The notes below the pieces were generated by a model, which searched no databases, was not told where the DNA came from, and saw nothing but the letters and a program-made list of their open reading frames with translations. The translations under genes and the position numbers were made by a program. Shown here piece by piece: positions 32,205-62,770 of a DNA stretch of 64,000 nt (within the stretch, counting starts at the first letter, position 1; each line of letters opens with the position of its first letter). Origin of the DNA: Paramecium tetraurelia (lineage: Eukaryota). The DNA is taken from NCBI GenBank assembly GCA_000165425.1, contig CT868065.1:1-64000 (forward strand). Reading direction: 5' to 3'.

Positions 32205-35200
32205 TCAATTACTCTTATTATTTCTTAAACAACAACTCATGTTCTTTAATGAAATCAGTCGCCCTTTCATATCAATAAAAAACTATTTGAACAGAAAGAT
32301 CAACTAAACTAATATCGAGCTCACAATAAAAAATAATATTATCCATCCTATGAAATACTTTTGATCAAACGAGAATATAATGCTTACATCATGAATAGCC
32401 AGTAACACTGTTATAAGGACGATTATGAAAATACAAAAGTCAGGCACTGCTATTTGTACAAGTATGCTTTTATTGACAAATGGATTCTAATAGAGAATCA
32501 ATGCCAAATTTAAGAAACATGTTAAACAACACAATGATGTTTACAACAAAGGCACTTCATAAAAGTACACTGTGAAAAATATAAACAAGGCTTTCCTCAT
32601 TAAATTCACATAACAATAATTCCTAGATAGTCTCTATTTAGTATTGATTCCTTCATACAATGAGCAGTAATATTTTGAAAAGACTTTACTCTCATACAAA
32701 ATCCTATGTTGAGAACAAACAAAAGAGTATAATCTAAACACCACATAAATAAAAATAATTCCTACCACAGATAAGAAAATATTCAATTAGATAATAGCAT
32801 ACTCTTTATTACACTTATTTTTTAATTAAAGAACACAAGCCAAACAAATATCCAGAAATACTAATCCAACAATTTAAAGTAATTTAGCTCTAAAATTGTA
32901 TTTAAAATCTTGGGTTTCTTTATAAATTGCTTTTATTATTGAAGGCATTTCCTTGTTTTTTATTTCTATTGTTTCAGTTGCCAGTTATTGTGGGGTGATT
33001 TGATAAATACTTCTGTGTCCTGGATTGACTGCAAAAATTGAAATTTTATGTTTTTTTCTAAAATTTGGTTCATAATGAGTCTTAATGATTGACACAACTC
33101 CGCTTGCACAAATATATGCAAAAATTGCTAATAAAAATAATCCAAAAAATAATTAGAGATTATTTAAAAATAATGGATTGACATCTTTTTCAGTAAATTT
33201 AGGAGGAGCTTAAAAATAATAAGGATCATCTGGCGAATTCAATGAAATAATATCAGGAATATTAAACACATCACCCCATTGAAGTTTATTGAAAAACAAC
33301 TTTACATTCAAAGGGTAATCCACATTCAGAAAATAAAAGTTGTTAATCCAAGTCAAAATATCTAAGATAGTCCAAAAGAAATTAAATCCTCCTAAAAGAA
33401 TAGCTAACGGTCCAATTAATTAAAGAAGGAAAGTGAAGGTAGAGGAAGTTGCAACAATAGTTTAGGCTTGAGCCTTTTAAGCTTCATTATAATACACCAA
33501 TCTTCTTGGAGTGATAACAACTTCTCTAACATCTTCTTCAAGGATTCTGGTGGCATTTTCCTATAAGGGAACTGTCAAATGAATAAGATTAGATTCCAAA
33601 ATGGTCTTAAAGAACTTAAATGTTATTTGACAACTCTAACCCATCAACTTTTAAACTTCCTTTTATGTAATATTAAATTAGTATTCTTTTATTTTGAAAT
33701 CTTCTATCCAAACTTTTACCTTGTTGCATACATCTTTTATATAAATATCCTCTAAAGTTAAATCAATATCGTTGGTAGTAGTTGAGTTTGAATAAGTCAA
33801 AATAACTTATTTCTTGGGTGGTAATATGCATACGCCATCTTTACAAAGGAACTCCTTTTCAATTTCACATTTGGAATTGCATCCGTCTTTATCTGTTTGA
33901 TTTCCGTCATCGCATTACTCTTGACCAGCTATGATGTTGTCTCCGCATTTAGTAACACAAGATTTTAGTTGTTTATCTAAATAAAGCCCAGATACATTAT
34001 CACATTTTTTGCATCCCTCTGTGATGCATTTTGTGCAATTATTTGGAGTATTTTCACATTCCTCACACTTTTCTGAGCATAAATTACATGAATTATCTTT
34101 AAGAAAATACCCACCCTTACATTTTATACACTCTACTTTGTTGATATTTAATTTACAATCCTCACAATTTTCTTAACATTTGTAACAATAACTTAATAGT
34201 GTCGCATCTTCCTCACAAATATAAAAAGGATCAGGTTTACAAGAAGTGCAACCATCTCTTGCTATATCATTATAATCATCACATAATTCTTAACCAATTT
34301 TAATACCATCTCCACATTTTGTTTCACATTTCTGTCCATTTAAATAATAACCAACTTAACATTCAAAACATTCTCCCTTCTAACAATTTGAACACAAGTT
34401 ATCGCATTAATATTTACATTCATAACATCCATCATATTGGATACTATTTTAATCTTCACATTACTCACTACCTACTACTATGCCATCTCCACATTTAGTC
34501 ACACAATCATTCAAAAAATTATCATAATATAAACCTGCTAATCCTTCACATTATTTTAATTCCTCACAACTTCCCTTTGATTCTACCAAGATCAGGGAAG
34601 TTTCACATTCTAAGCATTTTCCAAACTAACAATTTAAGCACTCCATTTGACATTGAAATTTACACTAAAAACAACCATCATATCTAAATTCATTTCCATC
34701 ATCGCAGACCTCATCTAAAGCTACTATCTAATCTCCACAAACAGAATTACACGAATTACTCACAATATCCAAATAGAATCCTTCCTAGCAAAGTACACAT
34801 ACTCCAAAAGCGCACTATTTACAATGTTGAGGACATTATAACCTGCAATTTAAACAAGAATCAAATAAGTATTGAATTCCGTCATCACACTCTTCTTCTT
34901 AAACTTATATGCCGTCTCCGCATTTAGGAACACAGTTATTCCCATAATATCCCTATTCGCATTCTATACACTTCTGTAGTAAACAATTTTTACAATTACT
35001 AGTGCACTTGTTCAAATTGTAATCTAATGTGCAAATATTAGGAGATAACTTAAGATTATATTAACAAAAAGCAAAAGGAATAGTGTTTAATTAACTTTTC
35101 TATTCAACTTGCTCAAAGTATACTTAATTTTCACATTTGACACAAGTATTGTCAATATAAATTTGGAAGGTATCAATTAAGGTAGAAGTAATTTTTAGAG

Positions 35201-38200
35201 ATTTAATACATTAGATTTGATTGAAGGATAAGTCATATCCTTTTGTGCATTGTTAACAAATACCGAATTGGCAAAGCTAACAATTAATATCGCAAGTAAA
35301 TTAGCAAGATATACAATTGTTTTGAACCACTTAGGTGTTTAAAATTTCACATTATTCATCATTTCTCAATAAAGCGTCTCCACAGATTGGATGACATGTA
35401 AATAATATTAATTCATAACCATCTAAACAATCATAACAGAGTCCTGAAATGCAATTAAGACATGAATCCTGACAATTGAATTAACAGAAATGACATCCAT
35501 CTCCTAATATAAAATTACCATCATCACATTATTCATCATCTGTAACTATCCCATCGCCACAAATTGAATAACAAAAATTATCAATTCTATCGTAACCTAA
35601 TTGACAAGCGAGGCAGCCTTTTCCATTAGTATCACAATCTATACAAGAAGGTTAGCACTTTAAAAGACAGATTTTATTGGAAGAGAGAGTATATTAAGAA
35701 GCACAAATTTCACATCTGTTGTTAACACAAGTAGGACAAATAGATGATGGTTAACATTAAAATTAGCACCAACTACTGCAACCATCTTAATCAGTTGTAT
35801 TACCGTCATCACATTATTCATAATAGTATCCATAAGGATCTGTGACGACTAAACCATCTCCACAAATATTTGTGCAAAAATAATAATATGGAGCAAACCC
35901 AGGGAATTCACAACTTAAACAAGTATTTGTGTTGTAATCACAAGATGAACAACCAATTCTACAATGATACTTACAATCTTTGCATCCATCTGCATCAGAA
36001 GTATTTGCATCATCGCATTATTCAATTCCAACAATTAGATTATCTCCACATCTTTCTTTACATTACCAAGGAGTGACAGTAGGATCAATAAACCATCCTA
36101 CAGTACCACATTCTTAACATTCTCCTTTTATACACTTAGTGCATTAAGGTTAACATTAAAATTTACAATCATAACATCCATCATATTAAATAGTATTGCC
36201 ATCTTCGCATTCTTCAATTCCAGTTATATATCCATCACCACAAATGTCTGGACATGGTAAATTAGTAAATAAATTACAAGTTAAACAATGAGCTGGACAT
36301 TGATATTAACAATTATAACATTTGTCATCAAAAACATTATTATTATCTTCACATTATTCATAACCTTTTATTTATGAATCTCCACAAATAGGTTAACATT
36401 CTCCATATTGTAATTGGAATCCTCCATCACAAGAACTACATATAGTTGTATGCCATATCTATTAATTATTATTACATAATTTATAACATTAAGTTAATGA
36501 ATTATCTTCTGTAATTGGACAATCTATAATAAATATAAATATTTGAAATACTTGTACAAGTATCATTATCTTCATAATAACCAGGTTTACATTCACATTT
36601 TAATCCTTTTAATATTCTATTTAAAGATAGATTACATGTTAAACAACCATTAATAGCAGAACTAAAACATGATTAACAGGATGAATGACAATTAGAACAA
36701 GTTTATGTTGAATCTTAATAATATGATCTAATTGGACATTTACATGCTGTTCCTATATTTTGTTTAATATTATTGCAAGTTAAACAGTCATTAGAAGTTG
36801 GTCCAGTACAAGTCTTACAAAATTGATGACATAAAAGACATTAAGGATTTGATATGATTGGATAATATCCATCTATACAAATACATTACCCATTTTATAA
36901 TTATCTATTATTACTAATTAAACATTCTATACAATAAGTTTAACTTAAACATTAATTACATTCAATTGGACAATCATAGCATTGATTTGATTATTCATAT
37001 TAATTCTATTTACAAGTGCATCCTAATTTACTTAAAGTATAAGTAGATGAACAACTTAAACAATCTAATTGAGATGTACAACTTAAACAAGGCATTGGAC
37101 ATTGTATACATCTAACTTATTCTTTATCATAAAATTAGTTAATATCACATTCTGCTTATGAAAATTTGACAACAGCCGAATTATATGTACTATTCCATTA
37201 TGTACATGTATTTTAATCTGAACATTATAAGCAATAAGGTTTGCATTTATGAACAGCTATATAATAATTATAGAATCCACAATAGGCATTAATTGGTTCA
37301 TTATTGGGTCCATAGCATTCCCATTAAATTGTTAAAGTATTTATATTGTGAGAAATTCTTTCATATACTTTATCATATTTTGAACCATCAGAATAGTATG
37401 ATGATAAATTAGAGGATGATTTATAAACTGAATTGTTTTCAATTGTATATATGAACTATCCATCATTAGGGAATGTTGGACCATAAAGGATATAAAATGC
37501 AATAGTGAGACTATGATGAGGATCAAGTATGTTATGAACTCTTTTGAATTTAGCCTAGGCCCAAACAAAAGGGCCTCCAAAGACTCGATATGATTACCAA
37601 TATGAATAATAAATATCTAATCCCTTTAAAAAATTTTTTCCATTTTGGCAAATTAAAGTATATTAAGAATATTATTCAGGATCATTTGCAGTGTTTATAT
37701 ATTCTTAAACTAAAAACATAGAGTCTAAATTTATCTTGGTATATATTTACATGGTGTTTCATCATCATAATCTTAACAATAAGAACCATTTAATTGTTGG
37801 TTTGGGTTTTAACATCTACGAATGCAACTACCATCTCTATAATTAAAATACCCAGGATTACAAGTCTTACATTTAAATGATACTTCACACAATTAACAAT
37901 ATAAAGGACAATATCCAGAAGTAATTTAGACTGAATATATTCCCCATCCTGCATTATCATTCCTAGAGTATTTAAATAGAAATTTACGTAAAGTTCCCTA
38001 CTGCTGAAAATATAAATGGGTATTTAGGAATGTCTAGATATGTAATTAATTCATATTTTATGGCTGAGGTATAACTCATATATGGGCCATAGGAAGTAGT
38101 ATCAAAGAGATTTAATTTATGCATTTATATGCCAGACGTATTTCTATAAATTGATCCAAAATAAGTCTAATTAATCTTAAATTATATTCCACATTCAATT

Positions 38201-39205
38201 GGAATCTCATTGAATGCAATAATTGAAATTTTTATTCCAATTAACTAAGTGTCATATTAATAATAAGCAATTTGATTAAAAAATCTACATAGACCAGAAT
38301 TAAATTTAAATACTCCATAAACATATTCATTAAATGCTAAGATTGTTGGAGATGTATCCATATGTTTTGGGTCATATAACAATGACCATTTGAAATTTTC
38401 GAATGAAGTAACATGATAAATATTTACTTATTCAAAAGTATAAACTATCATATTTAATTACATATTTACTTTGATAATTCTAACATATTCCATTAGAAAA
38501 CAATGGAGACTAAATGTCACAAGTATTTTTGCAACCATTATATTATTTAAAATATAAATTTGATGGGCAAGGCGGACAAATATTATTTGTAGGAACTCCA
38601 TAATAACATCCTGTGCATTAATTGAAGTTGGGTCCTGTGCAAGACATGCATGTAGGATGGCATGTTAGAGATGATATATAAAAGTTTTTAATTGAAACTT
38701 ATCCTTGAGTTTCGTTTGAGACTGATAATAGGGGTTATCCATAACTTTAGCTTGCCATTTCAATTGTAAAATTGATAGTTCTTATGTCAGCAGTAATGTT
38801 GTCACAAAATTAGCTGGTTAATGGATTACTTGAAGGCAAGGTATATGTATAATTATACACAAATGATCCTAAAACAAGCGTAACATTATCATTTGACCAT
38901 GTACCTTGAAAATATAAGTCTACCGATACAAAATACCCATTCATAAAAGAAAAGCCATATATTTGTTTTGCTGATTAATTTACTTTATTTAGAGTAATGT
39001 AACTTGTTGGAGGGGCTGTACAAGTAATAAAATTAGCAGTTGTAGAACCTGATTCTGAAACAAAGTAACCTGAATATAAGTAAGCATAAGATTCATTATT
39101 ATAGGTGAAAATCTGATTTTAGGTTAAGTAGCTATATCTTGTTAGCCATTATGAATTTGTTAGTTAGATCAAACATACAACGGTGAGTTTGATTAATGAT
39201 TTCAT
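32205..39205 (-). CDS. Giant Cys-rich surface receptor-like protein (signal peptide, furin-like and CGDG/CDDGN DUF4215-type repeats, C-terminal multi-TM), copy A
   Basis: 2299 codons after introns 38445-38469, 37963-37987, 37725-37750 and 36524-36551. Many CGDG..EQCDDGN..DGC units. TM region with FLNVDYPLN. Confidence 0.85.
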
Positions 39206-39729
39206 TAATTAAAATATAAGATTATCTCAAATAATCTATGAGATTATATTTAACAAATATATATTATAATCTATGAGTTTTCTATTAAGCAATAATTATT
39301 TATAGTCCCTTTTCACCTGTATAAATTTTTAAATAAATTATATATTTAAAAAGATATTAATAAAAATAAAAAGCATACCTTCTGAAATTGAAATGGGATT
39401 TGTTACAAATGTTATCAAATTGAACAATAATGCAGCACATGGAATAATATAATTATAGAATTTGATGCAATTTAGGAGATTAAATTGAAATGAAATGAAA
39501 ATTAAGAATTAAAATGAGCGGCAATTTGATTGCATGAGTGGCTGGCATTTCTATATGAGATTTTGGATTTCTATTGAAATGTTGTGTCTCGATTTGCAAT
39601 ACCTTGAATGTGTGCTAAGGTTTATGAAAAAACCCAAAACCATTCTTGAGAATATATAAAACGTGATTAAATTAAATTCTAATATCTGAATCAGATATAT
39701 AAATCTTAATTAAATTTAAAAAATATTTT

Positions 39730-40651
39730 ATGGATCGTCTTAACCCATCTTCGAAAGATTGTATAGTTCCACTAATTGAAGAAAATTCCCCCTGTATTTG
39801 TAATAAATAATATTTATAAATAGAAACAAACAAACCAGAGATTGATCCCCACTTTTTATTACCACAATTTACACAAATGATGTAAAACCCAGATTTCTTT
39901 CTGTAAACTGTTTAATTAGAGTAACTTAAACAGATGTAATCCTCATTCTATTCACAAATGAATAATATCCCTCTCATTACGGAAGAACCTAGAGTAATGG
40001 ATTTATTTACATAATAACTTTTATAACAATAGCTTATTTTAAATGCGGCATTATTAAACCAATTCCAAGTAAGTTGAATACTAATTAGGGTGTTGAAAAT
40101 ATTAATTATAGTCAAACCAAAGATCTCGTGGATAATAAAATAAAAAGAAAACACATCAAAAAATCTCACAATCCTTCTTTTAATAATGGTACTGTCCTCT
40201 ATTCTATTTAAGGTCATTGGAGCGCACAGGAACATTAAGTCTATCTAACATTTTTGTAATAACATAAAGATGTGATGGAAAGCTCTGAGTTAAAGAAGAC
40301 CAATAAGATATTTAAACTTATGTCCGACATAATTAAGTCTAGATCTCCTTCCCAATGCCGTTCTCATCATTAAAAATTCAATCCCTATTCCAAATACTTA
40401 GTTAATGTAATTTGTATTTGATAAATTAGAATAATATTGTTCGTAGAAAAATGAAGGAACAAATGTTGGGTGATGCTCAATAACAAAAACAATCAAAATT
40501 AGAGAATGACAATATTCAACAATAGTCCCAAGATTCAAATTAGAAGATTGAATTCTAATAGTAAGATTCTAATTAAAAATTGGAATCTTAATAATAATTA
40601 TTGGAATCGAACGTGAGAGATGATCAATAATAACTGAGCGGTTAAGAATGA
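39730..40651 (+). CDS. Single-repeat Myb (SHAQKY-like) transcription factor
   Basis: GHWSAQEHQVYL..IFKLMSDIIKSRSPSQCRSHHQKF with Q-rich flanks. Introns 39794-39823 (tentative), 40069-40088, 40189-40212 and about 40407-40429. Confidence 0.85.
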
Positions 40652-41048
40652 TTGTTTTAACTCTAAGATAATATCAAAAGAAACATTTTATTAAATATAA
40701 ATTATTTTATAAAAATATTCTAAGTAGCTCTATCTAGCAGCATTAAAATAAAGTACTAAAAAATGATAACTAATTTATTATGCCTATAAAAGTATTAGAT
40801 CTTTATTGATTATGTAGAGTTAAAGATTGATTGGGACTTCATTGAGAGAAGTGAAGTGGAACTAAAATTATTTAGTGAATCCAACAATATAAATATATAA
40901 TATGAAAGAATTTTGAGAACTTAAATTATATTTTATTCTTGCGTCACTCTTTTTTCTTAAGTTAAGGTCTTAACAAGAGGGAACTTTAGATTTATTTGAG
41001 CTAGTTTGGTTCGATTATAATAGGAAATGTTTTTATTTTTATGAAATT

Positions 41049-42656
41049 ATGAAATAAAATAAAAAAAGATTAAGTTATATAAAAAATCAAAAGCCTGCAA
41101 ACATTGAATGGATATTAAATCTTCTTGATTAGATACCTAAATATCAATTATAATAAAGCAACCTCAAATCAGCAACCTAAATTTAACTGTAAGGATTATA
41201 AGATTGTGATCAAATACTCAAATCGGAACTTTATTCTTTTAACAATAAGACAAATAAATTTTAACAGATAACATTTTCACTCTACCCCAATATGCTTATC
41301 AATAACTTCGGAGAATTCCTCATACTATCTACTTGTATCATGATTAAGAAGATTATCTAATATAAAGAGTTCATTGCCCAAGGTGTTCTATTGTATAATC
41401 ACCATGGAAATCTATTTATATTTTATGAATCTTACGTTTAGCAATTAAATGTACCTATATTCCTTATTCTTAGTGGGAAAAATAATTAAAAAGATTTTGT
41501 AAACAACAAAATTTTTCTTAAAAATATACCATCAAAGAAAAATTATCCATTCCAAATCATTTTGTTTGTGTGAAAAATAAAAACAGTAAGAAATTATTAA
41601 ATAACAATAGATCGAATTTACACAGTACAAATGATAAGATTTACTCATTTAAACGAGTAAAATTATGAACAATTAATGAACGAAATAAATATTTTGATGT
41701 GTTTTAAGTAGAGTGGTCTAAATTAATTCCATGCATTATTTGAAGATGGAGAAATCCTATACATTTTGTACGATTATTGGATAGGGGACACCTTATTTAA
41801 ATAGTTGTAATAAGGATTGCTACTAACTATGCAACAAATTTCTCAAATTATTTATCAATTAATAAAAGTATGCAGATTTTTAACAATAAATAATCTTTAT
41901 CATGCTGCCATATTACCAACTAATATTATCTTATTGAGAAACAATAATAATGCTCAGCAATAAACAAAGATTACTTTATTTAACTTCAGTTTTAGAGATG
42001 TAAATTAAGTTCCTTCGATAATATAAAAATTACCAAATGCTTGGATACCTCCTGAGTTCTCTTGTTTAAATGTGAAGTAAGACTTTGCATAAATTGATTT
42101 ATATTAAATTGGAGTTTTGCTTTACTACTTAACAATATTTCTGCCTGAAAACAATATCAAACAAGGTCCCTTTAATAAGACTATTGATAATTTTTAGATA
42201 TAATATGCCTGGCTCAAAGGATTATAACATAAAAGCCCAATCCCTTACTCATATTCATTAGTTGATTTCTTATGCTAACTATTAGATCCAAATCCTCAAA
42301 CCAGAATCACTTATTCAGTTGCGATTTGTCATCAATGGCTCATAAATTAAAAGCATTAATAAAATCCGATCGAAAAAGATAATATGAAAATCTTAGCATC
42401 TTTAAGAACTATTTTAGAATTGAGAGAATAAAACTCTAACGATTATGCATCCTCTTAAAGATTCGATCAAAAGTTAGAATAACATATAACAAGTTCTTCA
42501 GAAGAGGATGACTAAGTATAGACTGTGGATGATTATCTTCATAGAATATCCAAGGAAAGAAATTGTATTCCTCACTATATAAACCTCATGAACATAATTA
42601 CACCTTGCAAACACCCTTCTAGAAAATCGCTTAACGATTAAATTCAATTTGTTTGA
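41049..42656 (+). CDS. PH-like + CAMK-type pseudokinase
   Basis: NEINIL, FEDGEILYILYDY, YHAAILPTNI (HRD lost), NFS (DFG lost), WIPPE, DLYQIG, LLDPNPQTRIT. Introns 41451-41473 and 41586-41610. 520 codons. Confidence 0.75.
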
Positions 42657-42976
42657 TTTCACTCTATATTTATCAAATTTTTACCTACATATTAATTTAA
42701 AATGTAATAGTTCTCTAAAAATGAAAGGATTAATAATATTTTTGAGTTCTTGAAATTATAAAATCTAATACTCAATTGTATCTTATCAATTATTTTTGTT
42801 GTTTTTATTTAAAAATAATTACTAATACCTTTAACGTGTGAAAACTATTGAATATACGTTAGCATAAAGTAAATATATTATGTTATTAATCCTTAAATAT
42901 ATGATAGTAAATATCAAAATAGTTATAATATAAGGTATGATTCAATATTTAATAATATATAATATTGTTATAATAC

Positions 42977-43854
42977 TCAATTATCAGTCCAAGATGGTTT
43001 TCTCTTTTCTACAAATGCTGACATTCCCTCTTTTCTGTCTTGAGTTGCGAATGTAGAATAGAATGCTTTTCTTTCATATTTCACTCCTTCTCTTAATCCA
43101 ATGTTTTCTGCCTCGTTTATGGTGTCCTTGATCAAAGCAGCAACAGGTCTAAAATGATGATTATTTGTGCAATTACTTGCTAAATGAAGCTATCTTTTCA
43201 GCCACTTTTAATGTTTCCTCAACTAAATTTTATGCTGGAACTACTTTGCTGACTAATCCATATGAGAGTGCAGTCTGTGCATCAATGAATTCTCCTGTTA
43301 ATGTCATTTCCATAGCCTTTGATTTGCCTACTGCTCTAATTAATCTTTAAGTTCCTCCACATCCTGGAATCTAATTAAATAGGAGTATCTCTTACTGTTC
43401 CAAGTGTAATTTCAGGCAATCCAAATTTAGCATTCTCTCCTGCATAAATAATATCACACATTAATGCCAATTCAAATCCACCACCTAAGGCATAACCATT
43501 TACTGCTGCAAGGATAGGCTTTTTAATATTGGTCAAGTTTTCCCATGCTAAAGATGATATATGTTTATTACATGCAAGCATTTAGATGTTTTGAACTTAT
43601 GGGAAAGATTTGTCTTACATTTCTTTAATGTCTGCTCCAGCTGCAAATGCTTTTTCATTTCCTGTAATCACAATTGATCCATATTCAGGATTAGCATCAA
43701 TTTCCTATGTTACTTGGTTTAATTCTTTAATTAATCCATCACAAAGAGCATTCAAAGCTTTTGGTCTGTTTAATTAAATTAAGGCGACCTTTCCTTTTTG
43801 TGTAACACTGATGAAATTGTATGTGCTAAATCTGAACAATGATTTCCTAAACAT
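42977..43854 (-). CDS. ECHS1: Mitochondrial enoyl-CoA hydratase (crotonase family)
   Basis: [61 protein letters not shown]. Introns 43548-43571, 43371-43395 and 43149-43176. Basic N-terminal presequence. Confidence 0.93.
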
Positions 43855-48944: not shown

Positions 48945-48987
48945 GAGTACTAATGATTATTAAATATTTAATATTTTATATATATAT

Positions 48988-49969: not shown

Positions 49970-50326
49970 TGTTCATTATTATTATTCTCATACTTGCAAA
50001 TGTTGCAGTGCTTCATTTTACCTTAATGTTATTCATATGCTCAACCCTATCATATATCTAGAGTGTCAATATTGGTACTCAAGAAATTATGATTATTCCA
50101 TTAATTTGTATTAATTAATATAAGTGTTGATGAACTTACTTTTCCATACTTTTGTAAAATTTGAATAACTCTTAAACAAATCTACTCAAAGTTTATTTGA
50201 ATATATGAGTACTTCTTAACATAATATTTTAATCAAGTGTGATGTGTCTATTAATCAGATGATAGTTGAATACAATACTATTGAGAGATAAATGACATAT
50301 TTATAAAATATTATAAAATATTTAAT

Positions 50327-51772: not shown

Positions 51773-52107
51773 GCACTGATTTGCATGATTGTTAACTATA
51801 GTATTATTTGCAATCAAAAATTAAGACATTTCATTTTGCTATCTGCAATATTTAAATTGATTTTATATTTCCTAATCGTTTGGATTCTTAGCCAAAAAGT
51901 CGTTAGGAATGAATTTCTTCTCAATGTAGGTTTATAAAATATTATTATTGTTTTAATTATAAGGATTTACAATATAATTATTAAATTGTATAACTCATAA
52001 TTACAGAATGATGATTCTTAATTCGCACTAATTAATTAAATGCAAATCATTTTCTCAAGCTTACTAAAAGCCAACATATTTTTCATAATTTAAATATATA
52101 TATTATT

Positions 52108-54844
52108 ATGCAATAAGCCACTCATGTGATCTATGAGCTTGAAGATGATGAGGACAATAAATAATAAACTTCTAAACAAGTAGATAAGCTAATCTCATTA
52201 TTATAGTAAATCAAGATTGATAGAAAATTGGGAGCAGTTACTTATAAGAAATGGGGCACGTTATATAATTACTATTTCTCATTCAATCTCAAAAAAGCAA
52301 GACTGTTGTGTTACAAAACGAAGACATCCTCGTCTTACAATAATTATTATTCATTAAACAAGGGAGATTTTGTCAAGGATGAATCAGATATTGATCGATT
52401 CGAAAAAAGTTTGAAGAAAAGGAAAAATTATGAAAGTCCCCCAGATCAGAAGGTACAAATTGACTAATGACTTAAGTTAATTATTTATGTACGAACGGTT
52501 AAAGGCAGAATCTTTAAATTAGTCATCGACGAAAACGAAAATTATGATAAAATCGTAGGTTATTTATAAATTTGTTTCTCATCTAAAATTTAAACTGTGA
52601 CCTCCTTTTTTGCTTTGCTCGGCGTAGGATTAATCAAAGTAAACGATTACGAATTCAAATTAACCACTGGCATCTTTGTATCTTTGAATGATTGGTCAAA
52701 AACAAATAATAATAAATATCTCTTGAATAATCATGATTAAGGCTTAAACTTATTAATAAGCAATATCGAATTATTGGGTGGAATCATAGGTTCGTTTTAT
52801 AGAACCCAAAGTATATTCGGAATTATCTTTAACCCATTTACACAAACCATTGACATCGTATTGTTCGATAACTAAAAGTAAATCATTTTATTAAGCTATT
52901 TTAGTCCTAAAAAATTACTTTAGGGATTGTTCAAATTAGTCAAATTTAGTAGAAAACAAATCTAACCATCAGGTCGAGGGCAGCTGTTGAAATTGAGAAC
53001 AGATTAAAATGCAATTCAAGAAACCCATTATGTAGAAATAGCATAAAATGAGAATGTTAAAATATATATACACAATGAGTATCTTAACATTTCAGATTAT
53101 GAGTTGGTCTAAGGATCCATGTTCACATCCTAATATGTCGATGATCAAAATGATTTGGATGCTGATAAGTTAATATCGAATACAGCTTTAGAATTCTATA
53201 AAAAAGAATATAAACTAATAAACAGCAATGAAGATGAAACTAAAGAATTTATTATTGTTAACAGATAGTAAAAATAATTAAATTTTAATAATATTGTATC
53301 TTCTAGATGTAATAAAAGACACATTTCAATTACTACTGAGGAAATTGTTGATGAAAACTAAGGACAAGGTATTTAAGTAGCCAAAAGTATAAAAGTGCAT
53401 ATGCATAAATCAGAACAAAGTATACAAAAATAAAAATATGCTTCACTCCCTAAATTAGAATTAATTGCAGAATTTCAAACAGGGTATTTTAATTAAATTG
53501 AGAACATCGATTAGGTGAAATAACATCTATTCAAATAAGAATAATAGCAATAATAAAATGGAAAGGACGTATAAAATACATAATAAGAATAAAATAAAGA
53601 AAATAAGGAATAAAAAATACTAGAATGTTAACAAAAAGAGCAAGATAATGATTCAGATGAAATTGATTTGGTTAAGTTTTCAATAGTTTTTGAAATATCT
53701 GAGCATTGCCCTTATAGAGATTATAGTTCAATAATGAATTACGCTGTTAGTTTTAAGAAAATAGATTACAAAGATGAATATAGAGTCAGTATTGCTCATA
53801 AAAGTGGAGGAACAGCTTGTTAAGATAAGAAGATTATTGAATTAGCAAGAAGTGTTGGAAAAAACATGATCAAATAAGTGGGTTAGAAATTATTAAGTGG
53901 TAATTTCAATCTTACACAAGTTTCCTTTCCAGTAATTCAATATCTTATAAATGTATTTAGATCAAAGCCATGATTCCCAAATCTGCCTTAGAAAAAACCT
54001 TCATGTAAACTATTCTCTTTCCGTTATATTTAAATAAGGCAGCATCCCTTTAAGATCCTCTTGAACGAATGAAACTCTCAATTGTCGGATTACTATCTAA
54101 TTATATTTAAGCTAACTCTTTTCTAAAACCTCTTAATCCTATATTGGGGGAGACTTTTGAAGGAGGTTATGAAGATGGAACACAATTATTTTGTGAATAA
54201 GTAATTATTAAATATCAATCTATTAGATATCTCATCACCCTCCACTTTCTTATTTCTTAGTTTACGGACCAAAAAAGTCTTATAAATTTTATGGTTACTC
54301 TCTCTATGAAGCAAAGGCAGGATTCAACTCTCTAACCATATTGAATCATGGTAAAAGAACATTATAATTTAATGATTAAAAAATACAATGCACATTCTCA
54401 TCAGAACATTACTCTGGTACTTTTTTAGGAACAATGAAAAATGAATCGCAAGGCTCTCTTTAATTTGTTGATGAGGCTAATAGTAAATAGTTTAATTTAT
54501 GAGTAGATTTAAAATGTGTCGTCTAACTAGGAAAGGTGAAAAATAAACCAACCGATTATTTTGAAGGAGAGATCAAAAGAGGAAAAACAACTCTAAACAA
54601 ATTATTTGGCTCATACATGGGATTTGCTGATTTCGATGGTGTTCGATATTGGGATGCCAGAGTTGTTAAACCCTTCGCAATGCAGATATTAAAATCTTCT
54701 CTTGAATCAGATCATGCAAAAAGAACAGATAGAATCTTTATGGTACAAGGTGATATGGACAAAGCTCAATCTGAAAAAGAGAGACTGGAATAACTATAGA
54801 GAAAAGACGCAGCTTTAAGAAAAGCCTAAAGATAAAATGATTGA
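52108..54844 (+). CDS. Oxysterol-binding protein-related protein with N-terminal PH-like region
   Basis: KPLNPILGETF, EQ|ISHHPP, AQSEKERLEQLQRKD. Introns 53932-53960, 54201-54226 and 54483-54506. 886 codons. Confidence 0.9.
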
Positions 54845-55056
54845 GATTCTTCTAATTATGTATATTATAAAATATAATATCAATATTACTATAAATTATA
54901 ATTATAAAAACAATAAATGTATATTAATTAATTATATTTAAATTATATTAAAAATTATTTAAAATTCTTCTCGAATTAAAGGAATTATTTAACTATTCTG
55001 ACGATACTCTGTTTTAAGGACTCAAACTTGTATTTTCGAAGAATTTCATGCAATAA

Positions 55057-55320
55057 TTTGGATTCTTAAAATGATATAATAATAGTAATCAAAATTCAAC
55101 TTCCTTTTTTGTTGATTCAAAATCAACTCTTTTGGAATTATAGAAAGTTCCTTATGTTAATATTTATGCTCCTGAGGTAAAATATAAACAGTAATAAATG
55201 TGTTAAAAAAATAAATACCAAAAACAAACTGACATTTTTCAAAAATAATAATAATTAAATTTGAGTAAACTAAAATTAAGATCCAGCATTAAAAACTTGG
55301 GCATTGTAATATATTATTCT
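55057..55320 (+). pseudogene. Protein kinase relic
   Basis: One frame carries FGFLK* (TGA 55072-55074), YAPE, TDIF and LGIVIYY in kinase order. Confidence 0.45.
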
Positions 55321-55615
55321 TATTCTGAAAAAGTCAGAATGTTATTGATTACTTTATATTGTAACAAGGATTAAACCCCTTAAAACGAGAAGTTATTATG
55401 AAATTTCATTTTTTTTTGTTATTCAATACTAATAAGATAAACACTAAAAGGGTCAAAAAATAAATTTGTTGCATCTCTAAGCAATTGATGATTTCTATTT
55501 TATTAATTATTGTAATAAATTTGTATTTCTTATAGTGTCAATGACGTTTAAGAAAAAAAACCAACTACCAAGTAAATAGTTAAATAATGTAAAAAAACTA
55601 TAATTTAAATTGAAA

Positions 55616-55765
55616 NNNNNNNNNNNNNNNNNNNNNNNNNNNNNNNNNNNNNNNNNNNNNNNNNNNNNNNNNNNNNNNNNNNNNNNNNNNNNNNNNNNNN
55701 NNNNNNNNNNNNNNNNNNNNNNNNNNNNNNNNNNNNNNNNNNNNNNNNNNNNNNNNNNNNNNNNN
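55616..55765. other. Assembly gap (N run)
   Basis: Run of N. Confidence 1.
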
Positions 55766-55817
55766 CCTGTTCTATATAAATCCGTCTTATAGAATCTAAT
55801 AATCATATATTAAAACA

Positions 55818-58800
55818 ATGCAATTTTTGCTCATAATCATCGTTCTTACCTATGTTGAAGTTCTTTATTGCTAATGGCAAAACAATTTAGCTTTATTAAC
55901 ATCAAACACATTATTTACCTAATAAACTGGCCCATATGCATCTTAACAATCAGGAACCTTTTTGCAATTTAATACATAAATCACAGCCTATTTTATCACG
56001 TGCACAAACCCAAAAACAAGCTATATAACCCTAAATAGTTAATATCCTAGTGTTGAAACAGATTAAAACTACTTTTTATAAAGTGGATATTTTGTAGCTT
56101 TTGATTTATTTTTTAAAAGTACTTGGGATATTTAAGTTATAAGGTTTAAATTTGGTTCATTTGAATATTAATATATTTATTATGAACCATCAGATCATCC
56201 TTTGACTTATAAATTTTGTGATAATAAAATTGTCGATGTAAAAACAGTAAATTTTTCAATTACAACAACTAATTATGAAAAAATTTAGTTTATTTTCTCT
56301 TATTTCAATATTGGGTGGGTTTCAATTAGAAATTTTTATATATCTTCTTTTAATTGTTATCCCTCTTGCTCCTCTTGTAGTGGTTCTGGATTCAACGAAT
56401 GTACAGATTGCTATTTCCAAACCCCTACTAATGGAATTTGCCCCTCTTGCCCAACAAATTAATATTATGCGAAGCATATAGGATGCAAGCCAATTTGTGA
56501 TATTGGATCTTCTTTAATTAAGAAGGGATTCTGTCAAAATTATCCAAGTAATTATGAATAATATCTTCTTAGCTCAAAGTTTCATATCTACTTAATTTAC
56601 ACCTAATGTTTCATCCCCAGAAAATATGAAATGGTCATTAATCCTTGATCCACTACATGTTGACAATACTTTGCTTCCAAATATTTATGTAAACTATCAA
56701 TACATATACGGGATATTTAAATATCATTCAGGAGTTAACAGATTTATTAACGAACTATCTTCTAATTATTCAACTTACTTAATTGGATTCAAGATTACAT
56801 TAATAACATTCAATGATATCCCACTTGGTTGTGGAATCTAAATAAATATTAATAATACCTATTATGGATCAATTTCTAGAAATGACTAAGGAATTCAGGC
56901 ACATCAGTTAAGTATTTATGAAACTTCAGACTTTGGTTCATATCCAACGTATTCCTCCGTCAAAAAATATGTTTTAGTTACATACTATGATATCCCTAAG
57001 AACCCATTACTATTTTCAGCTGTCGGAAATTTTAGGTAAATTTCAATTATTATAGGTTAGTGATAACTCTGCTGGTTGGGGAATAATGTAAGTGTAAGCT
57101 ACTTCAGGTTATTGCCCTTAATTTTGTAAATTATGTGAAGTACCATTCAAATGTAAAACCTGCAATAGTGGATACTATTATTATAAAGATGGTACTTGTA
57201 TAAGTAGCTGCTCATTGCCATATTAGAAAATAGTCGATTCTTATTGTTAAGATTATGATGATGAAACACCATGTAAATATATACCAAGATAAATTTAGAC
57301 TCTATGTTTTTAGTTTAAGAATATATAAACACTGCAAATGATCCTGAATAATATTCTTAATATACTTTGATTTCTAAAAATGGAATCAATTTTTTAAAAG
57401 GATTAGATATTTATTATTCATATTGGTAATCATATCGAGTCTTTGGAGGCCCTTTTGTTTGGGCCTAGGCTAAATTTAAAAGAGTTCATAACATACTTGA
57501 TCCTCATCATAGTCTCACTATTGCCTTTTATATCCTTTATGGTCCAACATTTCCTTCAAATGGATATTTCATATATACAATAGAAAATAAATCACCAGTT
57601 TATAAATCAAGCTCTAATGCATAATCAGATTATTCTGATGGTTCAAAATATGATAAAGTATATGAAAGAATATCCCACAATACAAATACATTAACAATTT
57701 ATTGGGAATGTTATGGACTCAATAATGAACCAATTGAGGCCTATTGTGGATTCTATAATTATTATATAGCTGTTCATAAATGCAAACCTTATTGCTTATA
57801 ATGTTCAGATTAAAATACATGTACATAATGGAATAGCACATATGATTAGAATATTGTCAAATTTTCATAAGCAGAATGTGATATTCATGAATACTATGAT
57901 AAAGAATAAGTTAGATGCATATAATGTCCAATTCCTTGTTTATATTGTAGATCTAAATTAGATTGTTTAAGTTGTTAACCTACTTATACTTTAAGTAAAT
58001 TAGGATGTACTTGTAAATAGAATTAATATGAACAATCAAATCAATGCTATGATTGTCCAATTGAATGTAATTAATGTTTAAGTTAAACTTATTGTATAGA
58101 ATGCTTAATTAGTAATAATAGATAATTATAAAATGGGTAATGTATTTGTATTGATGGATATTATCCAATCATATCAAATCCTTAATGTCTTTTATGTCAT
58201 CAATTATGTTAAACTTGTACTGGGCCAACTTCTAATGAGTGTTTAACTTGCAAGAATATTCTTAATATTGAATAAATAGGAACAACATGTAAATGTTCAA
58301 TTGGATTATATTATAAAGATTCAACATAAACTTGTTCTAATTGTCATTCATCCTGTTAATCATGTTTTAGTTCTGCTATTAATGGTTGTTTAACATGTAA
58401 TCTATCTTTATAGAGAATATTAAAAGGATTAAAATGTGAATGTAAACCTGGTTATTATGAAGTAAATGATATTTGTATAAGTATTTCAAATATTTATATT
58501 TATTATAGATTGTCCAAATACAGAAGATAATTCATTAACTTAATGTTATAAATTATGTAATAATAATTAATAGATATGGCATACAACTATATGTAGTTCT
58601 TGTGATGGAGGATTCCAATTACAATATGGAGAATGTTAACCTATTTGTGGAGATTCATAAATAAAAGGATATGAATAATGTGAACATAATAATAATGTTG
58701 TTGATGATTTATGTTATAATTGTTAATATCAATGTCCAGCTCATTGTTTAACTTGTGATTAATCTACTAATTTACCATGTCCAGACATTTGTGGTGATGG

Positions 58801-61800
58801 ATATATAACTGGAATTGAAGAATGCGAAGATGGCAATGCTATTTAATATGATGGATGTTATCATTGTAAATTTTAATGTTAACCTTCATGTACTAAGTGT
58901 ATAAAAGGAGAATGTTAAGAATGTGGTACTGTGGGTTGGTTTATTGATCCTGCAGTCACACCTTAGTAATGTAAAGAAAGATGTGGAGATTCACTAATTG
59001 TTGGAATTGAATAATGCGATGATGCAAATACTTCTGATGCAGATGGATGCAAAGATTGTAAATATTTTTGTAGAATTGGTTGTTCATCTTGTGATTACTC
59101 TACAGGTTCTTGTCTAAGTTGTGAATTCCCTGGATTTGCTCCATATTATTATTTTTGCACAAATATTTGTGGAGATGGTTTAGTCGTCACAGATCCTTAT
59201 GGATACTATTATGAATAATGTGATGATGCTAATACATCTAATTATGATGGTTGCAGTAGTTGGTGCTAATTTTAATGTTAACCATCTTATATCTGCACTA
59301 ATTGCGTTAACAACAGATGTGAAACATGTGCTTAATATTATTAATTATCTGAAAATAAAATTTGTATTCCAATTTGTGGTGATTAATAATAATTGTTTGA
59401 TGAGAATTGTGAAGATAGTTTTATATTACCATATAAAGGGTGTTAAAATTGTATCCCTAAGTGTTAATCCTCTTGTATAGATTGTGATAATAATGGAAAA
59501 GGTTGTTTGGCTTGTCAATTTGGTTACGAAAGAATTGATAATTTGTGTTTTTCAATTTGTGGCGATCAGATAGTTACAGATGATGAATAATGTGATGATG
59601 GTAATTTTAAATTAGCAGATGGATGTCATTTCTGTTAATTCAGTTGTTAGGATTCATGTGGTAATTGCATTTCAGGACTCTGTTATAATTGTTTAGATGG
59701 TTATCAATTAATATAAAATAAGTGTCATCCAATCTGTGAAGATGCTATATTGAGAAATGATGAATAATGCGAAATTATAGATTAATCTATCTCAGAAGGG
59801 TGCGTTAATTGTCAATTCAAGTGTGATGTAAATTGTTAAATTTGCTTATTCGGAATGTGTTAACTCTGCTAAGTTGGTTTTCATATGCCTCCTGATGGGT
59901 AAAGTTGTTAAAGAGATTATTAATAATAAGACATCTAACTTGAATACTGTAAATTATAGATAGGGAATGCTTGTAAATAGTGTGAAGATTTCGCATAATT
60001 GAATCAAATAACAAAAACTTGTTCAGTAAACTTGTAATATAAAAAGTGTATGAAGAATTGTAAATTATGCTTAGATTAAATTTGTTTGGAATGTTATACT
60101 GGATATTATGGATTTAAATGTATCCCATAATTAGGAGATGGCATAGTGGTTGAAGAAGAAATTTGTTTTGATTAAAACAACTATGATACTATAGAATGTT
60201 ACTCTAAATGTGATGTCAATTGCATAAGTTGTATAATTGGGATATGTGACCTATGTTTATAAGGCTTTTATTTATTCAATAATAAGTGCATACCAAATAT
60301 TATAACTAATATTTTATATGTGAATGACGATTTAGATTTATGTGGAGATTATAAATTAAGCATCAATGAAGAATGTGAGGATGGCAATACTTATCCATTT
60401 GATGGTTGTTATTAATGCAAATTTTAATGTGATGTTAATTGTATTAATTGTCAATTTGGAAAATGTGAAAGTTGCAATAGTGGTTATATTCTAAATAATA
60501 ATTATATGTGTGAACCAGAATGCGGAGATGGCATTGTGATTCCATTTACAAGTGAATAATGCGATGAAGAAGATGAAGGGTGTTTAAATTGTTAATTTTA
60601 TTGTTAACCTTATTGTCTCTAATGTAATGTACATTAGTGTTTCTAATGCTTTAACGGATTTTCAATAAATTAAAATGAATGCATACCTGTTTGTGGAGAT
60701 GGAATATTATTAAGTGACTTTGAAGAATGTGATGATTAAAATGATGAACAATTTGATGGATGTTTTGAATGTAGATTTTAATGTCAGTAAAATTGTGAAA
60801 TATGTGAAGAAGGTAATTGCTTAAGAGAATTTTGTTACGATGGTACATATTGGCTAAAAGACTAATGTTAAGCTATTTGTGGAGATAAAATAATTGCAGG
60901 TGATGAATAATGTGATGATGGAAACTAAATTCAATATGACGGCTGCCATAATTGTTAATTTTAGTGCAATTAGCAATGCAATATCTGTGAAGAAGGAATA
61001 TGTCTTGAATGTATTATAGATTATGCCTTGATTGATGCGCTTTGCGTTTTAAACTAAAAGAAACTTATTAATAATACTAATCCTGGGTCTTTTAATAACA
61101 ACTCAAGTATCAATAGTAATGGCAACAGTAATAACAACAAAAATAATACTATTAATAGTAATGGTGTTAAATAATAAGAGTCAGTTTTAGAATCGAATGA
61201 GATATGTCGAGACTCAGAATGCGCATACTCAAAAAAACCAAACATGAAACTTACTTATAATTATTAACAATTTTCTTACTAATATGTTGACATTAGTTTC
61301 GATTAAGAAATAAAATTTAGTGATTCGGTGATAAAACAACAAGAGCTATTCAATATCAGTATTCTTGATTTAGAACCCAAAGATTATAATATTACTGTTA
61401 ATACAATATAAGAAGTCTCTTTTGATCTCTAAAATGCTTTCTATTAAGTTGTTGTTGAAATATTTCCACAACTTGTAAATAGGCCAATCCTTTTTATTTC
61501 ACTAAATTAAGAAGTTATTAACTCAAATAATTAGACACTTTAAGAAAATAATTAAACAATTACCCTTTACATACCAAAAGTAATTTCTGAGTCAATCAAA
61601 TCGACATCCATAAAAGCATAATAATCAAACAAAGCATTTATGATTGGAGCAATTTGTTTATGCGTAATTTCTTTAATTTCAGGTGAAAGTTCTGTATTTG
61701 TTGAAACTTTAAATGTTCTATAATATCAATCCTACTTAAGATTTATTAATATTGAATATCCTGAGAACCTATTTATCTATTTTTAAGCGTAAGACTTGCT

Positions 61801-62770
61801 ATCAATAACTTCTTATTTACAATTCTTCTAACTAGATGATTATTTAGACTTTATAACTAGAAAAGAATAATAATATGTTGATTTAAAGGGAAAATTTAAA
61901 GAATATAATATAGAGGCTGATCTTTTTACCAATATATTTCCACAGATGATTCAATTTCTTGGATTGATAACACTGCTTCGTTTTACTAAAAAAATTCATA
62001 ATTTATTATTCAAATTACTTTAATATAAAAAGGTTATTTACTATATCTAAACTACTAAATCTAAGATTTTAATGGCAATTATTAATTTTATACTGTATTT
62101 AGGTAAAAGTGTCAAATAATTAATTAGAATACGATATCTCTTTAATTGTGATTAAATTCGATAACTAATTTACTTAAATTCATGGGATTTGATATTTAAA
62201 GTAATTTTACAACTTAATTATAATCGAATAGATAATATTCGAAGTATTTTAACCACTGTATTTGCAGCTTTAATATTTCTCTACTACTTTTATTTTTTAC
62301 TCCAATCTTTCAAATAATGCAGTGATATCTATAACAAAAATACAAAAGCGAAGTTGGAAATAAAGTTCATTACGTTAGATATGTGCAGAACCATATTTTT
62401 CCATATTGTTCTAATACTATTCTAGGATCAATAATTTTTATAATGTTTACTACTCTCTGTTAGCAGCTTATGCTAATGTTGTCTATTATATAAATATAAA
62501 CGATGCTCTAAATGGGATAAAATTACATCCATATTAATTGAAGCCATTTTAACAGTTTTTAGTTTAAGTTTATTTTTTTATATTGAAATTGAGTAAGTTT
62601 ATATTTCTTACGAAAACAAAGTTACTTTAGGATTTATACACATGAACTTATTGATTTTAAGTCTGGCAATAGTTCTTGCAAAACAATTAATACCTAAAAT
62701 AATAAACATATGCAAATTTTTATTTTAATAAAAGAAACCTAAAGTTGCTACAGAAATACTATTTTTTTGA
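55818..62770 (+). CDS. Giant Cys-rich surface receptor-like protein, copy B (inverted paralogue of 32205-39205)
   Basis: 2283 codons after introns 56548-56572, 57036-57060, 57273-57298 and 58481-58508. Signal peptide, furin-like and CGDG/CDDGN repeats, Asn-rich linker at about 61070-61170, TM region with FINIEYPEN. Confidence 0.85.
57245..59780. repeat. Long inverted repeat matching about 35340-37780
   Basis: Long near-identical reverse-complement stretches, e.g. 58021-58200 versus about 36830-37010, including two identical introns. Confidence 0.9.

Follow-up and report, generated by a model that had tools for sequence, protein, structure and literature searches.

We find that two giant paralogous genes of Paramecium tetraurelia, lying inverted on one scaffold and named A and B here, have in common an internal core far more similar than the regions on either side of it. 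The reading that we favor, at a probability of roughly 85%, is that about 2.4 kb of A was recently replaced by sequence of the B lineage through non-reciprocal interlocus (ectopic) gene conversion, the two inverted copies lying 16.6 kb from each other. Recent segmental conversion had already been proposed in an earlier sequence-only reading of this DNA, and it is now supported by a local drop in synonymous and intron divergence and by a tree of the core that disagrees with those of its flanks. The window analyzed is a 64,000-nt stretch of macronuclear DNA, read with the ciliate code (table 6) and with introns of 25-28 nt.

Gene A (GSPATT00037595001, protein P0003) occupies 32205..39205 on the minus strand, with five exons at 39205-38470, 38444-37988, 37962-37751, 37724-36552, and 36523-32205, stop included. 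Gene B (GSPATT00037604001, protein P0022) occupies 55818..62770 on the plus strand, also with five exons (55818-56547, 56573-57035, 57061-57272, 57299-58480, and 58509-62770, stop included). Under table 6 the spliced products match the database proteins of 2298 aa (A) and 2282 aa (B) at every letter. The two genes are transcribed divergently and point outward, and their ATGs are separated by 16,612 nt, which bears out the orientation and the 16.6-kb distance first reported for them. The spacer between them (39206..55817, 16.6 kb) holds unrelated genes of five Pfam families (protein kinase, enoyl-CoA hydratase, MutS-like, HD-domain, and oxysterol-binding proteins) and has no tblastn match to the A/B family. 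An assembly gap, a run of N at 55616-55765, ends 52 nt 5′ of the ATG of B. A search of the window for tRNA genes found none.

Divergence between A and B is not uniform, either in sliding windows of identity or in dS by segment. A two-breakpoint maximum chi-square scan places the converted core of A at 35346..37786 on the minus strand (aa ~457-1252), covering the end of exon 3, intron 3, exon 4, intron 4, and the first DUF4215 repeats of exon 5; its counterpart in B, the presumed donor lineage, lies at 57237..59773 on the plus strand. Inside the core, 175 of 2440 aligned nt are mismatched (7.2%) against 737 of 1882 outside (39%), a contrast with a chi-square of 653 compared with a maximum of 20.3 in 200 shuffles, none of which exceeded it. 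Nei-Gojobori estimates for the core (aa 457-1252) are dS 0.136 and dN 0.065, with dN/dS of about 0.5, against saturated flank dS values of 1.31 on the 5′ side and 1.76 on the 3′ side. The exons at 57245-59330 and 35720-37780 had been described as nearly identical; they are close, but core identity is only 92.8% at the nucleotide and 88% at the amino acid level, with a longest perfect run of 150 nt, and the core continues about 440 nt further 3′ than had been described, past an indel. At this indel, 59334..59458 of B (plus strand) has no counterpart in A, which retains only 35661-35698 there. The net result is an A core 87 nt (29 codons) shorter than that of B and missing one CGD...C repeat unit; other family members align over 846-848 columns compared with 816 residues in A.

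The two edges of the core are of different kinds. The 3′ edge is abrupt and falls within one repeat unit. The 5′ edge is graded, with identity per 100 nt rising from 68-72% to 77-85% and then to 93%. Just 5′ of the A core, a zone of intermediate divergence at 37787..38309 on the minus strand (aa 291-456; B counterpart ~56712-57236) has a dS of 0.94 compared with 1.62 further 5′, and this zone is possibly an older conversion tract. Beyond it, the N-terminal domains are diverged as first described. The C-terminal halves had been called unalignable by eye at the DNA level; they are not unrelated, and align over their full length at ~20-38% amino acid identity.

The introns follow the same division. 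All four sit at the same alignment column and in the same phase in A and B, and the earlier statements on their common positions, on which of them differ, and on their exact sequences all hold. The two outside the core differ between the copies: intron 1 of A (38445..38469, minus strand, 25 nt) is identical to intron 1 of B (56548-56572) at 14 of 25 positions, and intron 2 (37963..37987, minus strand, 25 nt) matches 57036-57060 at 18 of 25. The two within the core are base-for-base identical, intron 3 (37725..37750, minus strand) with 57273-57298 over 26 of 26 nt and intron 4 (36524..36551, minus strand) with 58481-58508 over 28 of 28 nt.

These observations bear on whether any DNA was exchanged, or whether the core has simply been under stronger purifying selection since an old duplication. 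Selection does contribute: the core is the best-conserved segment across the family (55-75% amino acid identity compared with 40-50% for the N-terminus), and selection therefore adds to the contrast between core and flanks at the protein level. In addition, dN/dS is below 1 along the whole length of A and B. Selection by itself is nevertheless the least probable of the explanations we considered, and a very remote one, given that synonymous divergence is about ten-fold lower in the core (0.136 compared with 1.3-1.8), that the introns within the core are identical and those outside are not, that the 3′ edge is abrupt within a single repeat unit, and that the core tree moves A away from the relatives of its flanks.

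Trees for each segment were built by IQ-TREE quick search under LG+G4 with SH-aLRT support from 31 hand-picked protein rows, with groups named after the trees had been seen; all comparisons beyond the window are at the protein level. In the core, A and B group with a support of 100 inside a five-row clade with P0029, P0033, and P0026 (94), whereas the grouping of A, B, P0029, and P0033 on its own has a support of only 45. The flank trees conflict with this topology. B joins P0029 and P0033 (100) both in the N-terminus and in the segment combining the middle with the C-terminus; in the latter A joins P0004-P0008 and P0010 (100), and the N-terminus of A groups with neither B nor the C-terminal relatives of A. 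AU tests reject an A+B clade in aa 1-290 (p 3e-4) and in the middle plus C-terminus (p 2e-5), and do not reject it in the intermediate zone of aa 291-456 (p 0.12). For the core, the same test rejects a grouping of B with P0029 and P0033 that leaves out A (p 3e-5) and a grouping of A with its middle plus C-terminal relatives (p 1e-82). Among the 31 aligned proteins, A and B are mutually nearest in almost all 40-aa windows of the core, and none appears as a third-party donor of its more diverged patches. Our searches turned up no orthologue of either gene above ~60-75% in other aurelia species, so that the event is not datable against a speciation.

Relatives switch between segments only in A and stay the same throughout in B, which at the protein level argues for a non-reciprocal tract; copying most likely ran from the B lineage into A. 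That the N-terminus of A has a third set of relatives indicates at least one further, older exchange in the history of A. The same patchwork can be turned toward a different origin, in which A became a chimera by crossing-over or partial duplication, through inversion of the 16.6-kb block or through a double crossover. Inverted repeats can recombine and invert the DNA between them, the three segments of A have three different sets of relatives, and within the family one core type occurs with both types of tail. However, a single crossover between inverted copies would leave one switch point in each and make both chimeric, and we see two in A and none in B. A double crossover with the same outcome is indistinguishable from conversion on the present data. 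We regard such a chimeric origin as improbable, though less so than any of the other alternatives to conversion of A by the B lineage.

A different concern is that the reference scaffold might have collapsed two different genes, or joined them as a chimera, at the core. The scaffold does contain N gaps, one of them immediately upstream of B, and public short-read contigs fragment in the core, where depth is about doubled. We compared these contigs with gene A. In three of three DNA-like public runs from different studies, a 3.46-kb contig covering 32078-35537/35539 spans the 3′ junction of A with 0 differences. The contigs listed for run X12 cover 118 of the 175 core positions that discriminate A from B with 0 differences from A, and A-specific core variants recur in independent runs. 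The 5′ edge of the A core is bridged by none of the contigs listed, which break at 37785-37865, and only the reference assembly shows the 5′ junction of A. Two real copies with 31-mers in common should give a doubled depth, both reading frames are intact and equal to the annotated proteins, and copies with 175 differences and an indel between them are not collapsed. An artifact of this kind, which the sequence-only reading had named as what would overturn its account, is accordingly very improbable: the core is not collapsed and the 3′ junction of A has independent confirmation, whereas the 5′ junction is without a bridging contig. In the RNA run X20, contigs at ≥97% identity fall on exons 5 and 4 of A and none on exons 1-2; none carries a spliced intron, and these contigs prove neither transcription nor splicing.

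One DNA contig, from run X15, has four B-like bases in A context, which can be explained by an assembler merging the two copies at common 31-mers. It could also be taken as a trace of programmed, possibly somatic, recombination reassorting tips and tails, by analogy with the assembly of the Tetrahymena mating-type pair during macronuclear development. In favor of such an analogy, A and B are head-to-head ciliate paralogs encoding cysteine-rich multi-pass membrane proteins with an internal segment in common, and a second locus has the same kind of mosaic. However, the common segment is 93% identical rather than 100%, the copies are separated by unrelated genes of five Pfam families, and the 3′ junction of A is the same in all three runs. 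We found no sign of a programmed or somatic process in the 3′ junction of A in the three DNA-like runs, in core identity, or in the macronuclear sequence. We therefore think it very unlikely that the mosaic arose in this way, and the diversification system earlier suggested for these genes is not supported by a non-reciprocal tract of 93% identity with a constant 3′ junction.

The proteins encoded by A and B are built from a signal peptide, a beta-sandwich tip, cysteine-rich repeats of the furin/EGF-like and DUF4215 types, and a multi-helix membrane tail. In A, the N-terminal beta-sandwich (aa ~20-180; 38666..39148, minus strand), which lies in the diverged tip, is predicted by an AF2 model with pLDDT ~90. 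Foldseek gives this tip weak matches to carbohydrate-binding modules, Cry domain III, MAM, and the EphA2 ligand-binding domain (best E 3e-4), suggesting that the tips of A and B may be CBM-like beta-sandwiches. The DUF4215 region (Pfam PF13948) covers 33882..36521 on the minus strand in A (E 2e-95, 11 stretches) and 58511-60991 on the plus strand in B (E 2e-80, 12 stretches), with scores of 313 and 266 bits, respectively, compared with a curated cut-off of 27. The family is large, with 1969 database proteins at E≤0.001. Our literature search found no paper joining DUF4215 with ciliates and none naming the gene identifiers of A or B.

Two types of membrane tail end these proteins. The A-type tail, at 32289..33431 on the minus strand, has ~7 hydrophobic segments by hydropathy and AF2 modeling, and its model contains more than seven helices. 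The B-type tail, at 61634..62704 on the plus strand, is a distant homologue identified by hydropathy and hhalign. Profile-profile comparison gives a probability of 96.9% (E 1.5e-10, 16% identity over 346 columns); it was run on the cut-out membrane columns, since full alignments merely re-aligned the common repeats. The A-type and B-type tails are two old subtypes of one fold, and the same core type occurs with either of them within the family. By VIA, the best match of the A membrane bundle is a generic one to microbial rhodopsins (Z 9.0), with class C GPCRs at Z ~7; values under ~13 are common for helical bundles. A Foldseek comparison of the A tail model with the PDB yielded no match at E≤0.001, with just weak Ig-like matches for the juxtamembrane beta part. 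A complex prediction for the two membrane domains (A aa 1864-2298 with B aa 1894-2282) scored 0.01, which is informative neither way. In the ESM Atlas we observed only unnamed ciliate clusters; PF06011 occurs in 11% of the members of one of them, and the scores of DGF-1_C clusters are <0.9. These are leads only. The architecture suggests that A and B may be surface receptors with signaling domains. The picture of tip, stalk, and signaling domain drawn earlier is apt as a description of a diverged tip, a homogenized cysteine-rich stalk, and two tails; its receptor and signaling roles remain deductions from architecture.

Several known families resemble A and B in build. The Tetrahymena MTA/MTB genes are a head-to-head paralogous mating-type pair (PMC3608545 and PMC7786109), and their products, like that of Paramecium mtA, combine furin-like cysteine-rich repeats with a large N-terminal portion outside the cell and membrane helices at the C-terminus. 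Unlike MTA/MTB, A and B lie 16.6 kb apart and no programmed joining is seen. Membership of A and B in the mtA or MTA/MTB family was considered and rejected: the mtA and mtA-like genes are characterized in sections of PMC7900874 as a small family with five helices and no genome-duplication duplicates, compared with ~7 hydrophobic segments and 1969 proteins here. The CRMPs of Apicomplexa and ciliates are, by description only, also alike in being very large, with EGF/furin-like cysteine-rich modules and a multi-pass C-terminal domain. According to PMC9815656 and PMC9670195, they have nine helices in Apicomplexa and five in Tetrahymena compared with ~7 in A/B, and in Toxoplasma members of two CRMP clades form a heterodimer; P. 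tetraurelia is credited with a highly expanded CRMP repertoire (PMC9815656).

As a process, conversion between paralogs is already documented genome-wide in Paramecium, and A/B is a new example of it. McGrath et al. 2014 (PMC4199370) and Gout et al. 2023 (PMC10195154) describe it as widespread in the aurelia complex and, as in A/B, as a homogenization of synonymous and non-coding sites found as a local drop in dS. Those studies concern whole-genome-duplication pairs on different chromosomes, with a median longest identical stretch of ~108 bp in P. tetraurelia. In contrast, A and B are inverted on one scaffold, with a gene-internal tract of ~2.4 kb between saturated flanks and no GC enrichment. 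GC3 is 12% in the core and 17-27% in the flanks, the opposite of the GC enrichment that PMC4199370, in the portion available, treats as typical of conversion.

Segmental conversion also acts in families of surface proteins. In trypanosomes, VSG conversion goes together with the switching of expression sites and with immune evasion. Such segmental conversion gives mosaic genes (mentioned in PMC9788069), and like A/B it copies a patch of one family member into another within a large family of cysteine-rich surface-type proteins. A and B differ in giving no sign of a dedicated mechanism or a link to expression, and in that it was the conserved stalk that underwent conversion rather than the variable tip.

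In the history that we propose, A and B are old paralogs from a large family of giant ciliate membrane proteins. A break in A may have been repaired with B, on the same chromosome, as a template, so that ~2.4 kb of A would have been replaced by the corresponding sequence of the B lineage. The conversion would be placed in the germline micronucleus, because only that nucleus is inherited. Subsequently the two cores would have diverged to a dS of ~0.14 and A would have lost one repeat unit. The graded 5′ edge and patchy core suggest that more than one event may have taken place.

Taken alone, the A/B case leaves knowledge of gene conversion as it was; its value is as a clean example of gene-internal conversion between paralogs in inverted orientation, in which both edges of the tract could be placed, the 5′ one being graded. 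It shows that dating of divergence or calls of orthology in this large, unannotated receptor-like family will mislead unless genes are analyzed segment by segment. We searched for further mosaic pairs by a sliding-window scan, as whole-HSP BLAST identity missed even A/B. A second P. tetraurelia cluster (GSPATT00010416001, GSPATT00010418001, and GSPATT00010420001) is mosaic in the same way, its left edge lying at ~aa 410-440, and a P. primaurelia pair on one contig has a homogenized core. Together with the joining of one core type to either tail, these cases hint that the conserved stalk could be a standing recombination substrate across the family, through which clustered paralogs repeatedly exchange or homogenize their stalks while the N-terminal, putatively ligand-binding tips stay diverse and the two old tails are re-dealt, an idea that we put forward tentatively and consider rather unlikely at present. 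A left edge near aa 410-450, if it recurs family-wide, would point to selection keeping N-terminal domains distinct and stalks homogenized, and stalk exchange, if true, would mean that a free-living ciliate shuffles its receptor modules as cassettes over evolutionary time.

We find a real internal gene-conversion tract of ~2.4 kb between the inverted paralogs A and B. The window, identified by protein search as macronuclear DNA of Paramecium tetraurelia, has 23-34% G+C; its long reading frames stay open only if TAA and TAG encode glutamine, and intron lengths are 25-28 nt, with the form GTA...TAG. The spliced model of gene A (minus strand, from the ATG at 39205 to the stop at 32205) matches the family protein P0003 (2298 aa, GSPATT00037595001) letter for letter, as does that of gene B (plus strand, from the ATG at 55818 to the stop at 62770) the protein P0022 (2282 aa, GSPATT00037604001). 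Both proteins are recorded on the same 174,740-nt contig; comparisons beyond the window rest on protein-level evidence. The two genes are divergently transcribed with start codons 16,612 nt apart, and no further family members were found in the window. Runs of N lie at 15141-15371 (231 nt) and 55616-55765 (150 nt), the second ending 52 nt upstream of the B start codon, so that the B promoter region is incomplete. Between the genes, where identifier numbering suggests eight gene models, Pfam matches five families (protein kinase, enoyl-CoA hydratase, MutS-like, HD-domain, and oxysterol-binding protein). The MutS-like open frame (46315-48855, plus strand) matches MutS domains III and V with weak scores, and its location between converted genes is probably coincidental.

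The divergence between A and B is strongly mosaic. Using the genomic alignment profiled in 100-nt steps, we observe that the first 800 nt of the genes are ~53-66% identical, near the 47-58% of the non-coding upstream DNA, in which the A and B regions show no similarity. Identity rises to 68-72% in the latter half of exon 2 and to 77-85% in exon 3; between A 37714 / B 57309 and A 35410 / B 59710 it is 85-99%, with an abrupt drop to 52-55% 3′ of this stretch. A two-breakpoint maximum chi-square scan placed the core limits at A 37786-35346 / B 57237-59773, with 175 mismatches among 2440 aligned positions inside and 737 among 1882 outside (chi-square 653; maximum of 20.3 in 200 shuffles). By the Nei-Gojobori method with the ciliate code, the core (aa 457-1252, 796 codons) has a dS of 0.136 and a dN of 0.065, compared with 1.31 and 0.40 in the 5′ flank and 1.76 and 0.69 in the 3′ flank. 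Each gene has four introns, all at identical alignment columns and codon phases; identity between A and B is 14/25 for intron 1, 18/25 for intron 2, 26/26 for intron 3, and 28/28 for intron 4. Given the dS contrast and the shuffles, the mosaic is real, far above chance, and more than a protein-level effect. The sequence-only reading, which quoted the intron sequences exactly, had described an alike core with diverged ends, and the mismatch, dS, and intron contrasts all agree with it. The core exons that it called nearly identical are 92.8% identical in nucleotides, with perfect runs no longer than 150 nt, and the core that it recognized reaches ~440 nt further 3′, beyond an indel.

Public sequencing runs served as a check on the assembly. 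The interval 34800-39300 is present at 0.96 of sampled words in 14 runs, and in whole or part in 20 runs from 17 studies. We mapped Logan contigs from four of these runs to the gene A region (32000-39500) at a likeness of at least 97%. In all three DNA-like runs, a single contig of 3460-3462 nt covers 32078-35537/35539 with zero differences and passes the abrupt 3′ junction (35346) by ~190 nt. Core contigs are short and about doubled in depth, as expected if 31-mers are common to two real copies. In one run, X12, the listed contigs span 118 of the 175 positions that discriminate A from B, none differing from A; among those listed, no contig bridges the 5′ core edge of A (37785-37865). A contig of another run, X15, over 36450-36716 differs from the window only at 36554, 36560, 36568, and 36569, at the end of A exon 4. 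All four positions carry the base of B, and the flanking discriminating positions 36514, 36619, and 36621 are A-like; the explanation may be a short conversion tract that segregates among strains, or an assembler merge at shared 31-mers. Contigs of the RNA run are restricted to exons 4-5 and include no spliced joint, and expression is thus not demonstrated.

The relatives of each gene point to the direction of transfer. We aligned 31 family members with this N-terminus and core type, hand-picked from 120 listed, and dropped rows filled to less than 60-70% in each segment, leaving 31, 22, and 18 rows for the core, the N-terminus, and the segment after the core (mid+C), respectively. In trees built with IQ-TREE in quick mode (LG+G4, SH-aLRT), A and B are sisters in the core (100) on equal branches of 0.081 and 0.083, within a clade holding P0029 (P. 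tetraurelia), P0033 (P. octaurelia), and P0026 (support 94). In both the N-terminus and mid+C trees, B groups with P0029 and P0033 (100). A joins P0004-P0008 and P0010 of other aurelia species in the mid+C tree (100) and stands apart from B, at a position that is not resolved, in the N-terminus tree. AU tests, whose groups were named only after the trees were inspected, rejected an A+B clade for aa 1-290 (p 3e-4) and mid+C (p 2e-5) but not for aa 291-468 (p 0.12). For the core, they rejected B+P0029+P0033 without A (p 3e-5) and A with its mid+C relatives (p 1e-82, a value inflated by P0004 itself switching between segments). B therefore keeps one set of relatives along its whole length and A has two switch points, so that the tract is non-reciprocal, with A as the likely recipient and the B lineage as the most likely source. 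A single crossover between the inverted copies predicts one switch point per gene, and the pattern differs; a double crossover would give the same outcome as conversion and cannot be told apart from it. The recent segmental conversion proposed from the sequence is thus borne out by the core-limited drop in dS, the identical inner introns, and the conflict between trees. The first 290 residues of A (38310-39205) cluster with neither B nor the relatives of its C-terminal half, and A therefore appears to carry a further, older exchange.

The history of the core may be more complex than one transfer. Core mismatches are clumped (index of dispersion 3.5, reached in 0 of 2000 permutations), no third-party source for the more diverged patches was found among the 31 aligned family members, and aa 291-455 have an intermediate dS of 0.94. 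Taken with the graded nature of the 5′ edge, these features suggest that more than one event took place. The dN/dS of the core is 0.48. In some windows dN exceeds dS, as in two adjacent 60-codon windows at A aa ~777-895 (~36420-36770; dS 0.01, dN 0.05-0.10), where either amino-acid change after a very recent sub-tract or chance on a small number of sites may be responsible. Inside the core, B and the other aligned family members have 29 codons, one CGD...C repeat unit, that are missing from A (35661-35698 in A vs 59334-59458 in B); they were apparently deleted from A once the conversion had taken place. GC3 is ~12% in the core of both genes (A aa 456-1283, B aa 456-1315; approximately 35250-37790 and 57235-59870) vs 17-27% in the flanks. 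This trend is opposite to a signature of GC-biased conversion, of which the core shows none, and is mildly against the simplest expectation.

Both proteins consist of an N-terminal tip, a cysteine-rich stalk, and a membrane tail. Exon 5 of A and B encodes 11-12 DUF4215 units (PF13948; 313 and 266 bits, cut-off 27), and cysteine makes up 13-16% of residues over ~aa 600-1800. Residues 1-245 of A are modelled as a beta-sandwich (pLDDT ~90 across residues 20-180). Its weak similarities (best E 3e-4, TM 0.33-0.55) to carbohydrate-binding modules, Cry-toxin domain III, a MAM domain, and the EphA2 ligand-binding domain offer a lead and no assignment. Hydropathy predicts ~7 membrane segments per protein, and the model of the C-terminal 559 residues of A (mean pLDDT 72) shows a helical bundle preceded by a small beta domain. 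Foldseek found no match to this bundle; VIA-align Z scores were 9.0 for microbial rhodopsins and ~7 for class C GPCRs, values that the tool's note treats as helical-bundle background. The A and B tails do not hit each other in BLASTP, but at the profile level they do match (hhalign probability 96.9%, E 1.5e-10, 16% identity, 346 columns). They are two old subtypes of one fold. The C-terminal halves, taken by eye to be unalignable at the DNA level, are homologous, though very distantly.

Similar mosaics are found elsewhere in what is a large family. Among 5666 candidates, a search with A exon 5 gave 1969 proteins at E≤0.001, and the tail alone matches 125 representative clusters; the 10 distant tail clusters examined include 2 from Paramecium bursaria, 1 from Tetrahymena utriculariae, and 4 from aurelia species. 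We scanned 26 P. tetraurelia family proteins in sliding windows, confined to those pairs (of 325 possible) whose BLASTP alignment reached 400 columns or more, and found 8 pairs with a 150-aa window of at least 85% identity beside windows at 14-53%. Four of these lie wholly inside one cluster on another P. tetraurelia scaffold, which includes P0111 (GSPATT00010416001), P0037 (GSPATT00010418001), and P0052 (GSPATT00010420001), and two more join it to P0097 on a small contig. P0037 and P0111 are 42-56% identical over residues 1-400 and 87-100% identical from ~residue 410, and the tail of P0037, the middle gene, is at best 98% identical to that of its other neighbour, P0052. In P. primaurelia, P0005 and P0010 on one contig share 66-77% identity in the N-terminus and 88-97% in the core; their C-terminal part is patchy. 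Several pairs group by species in the core tree, and one core type occurs with either tail type across the family. These protein comparisons hint that segmental exchange recurs in the family, possibly with a preferred left edge. Some gene models of the other members are possibly fragments.

Our literature search found no paper naming genes A or B and none joining DUF4215 with ciliates. By description, the layout of A and B is similar to that given for cysteine repeat modular proteins (CRMPs) in two papers (PMC9815656, PMC9670195), the first of which reports a highly expanded P. tetraurelia repertoire. The two proteins are unlike the mating-type protein mtA and its four relatives, which PMC7900874 describes as a small family with five helices. 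A dedicated diversification system, as suggested by the sequence-only reading, is not supported; a milder possibility is that the stalk could be a recurrent recombination substrate that re-assorts tips and tails. Since gene conversion between paralogs is described as widespread in Paramecium in PMC4199370 and PMC10195154, the A/B tract is one more instance of a known process, from an unstudied family.
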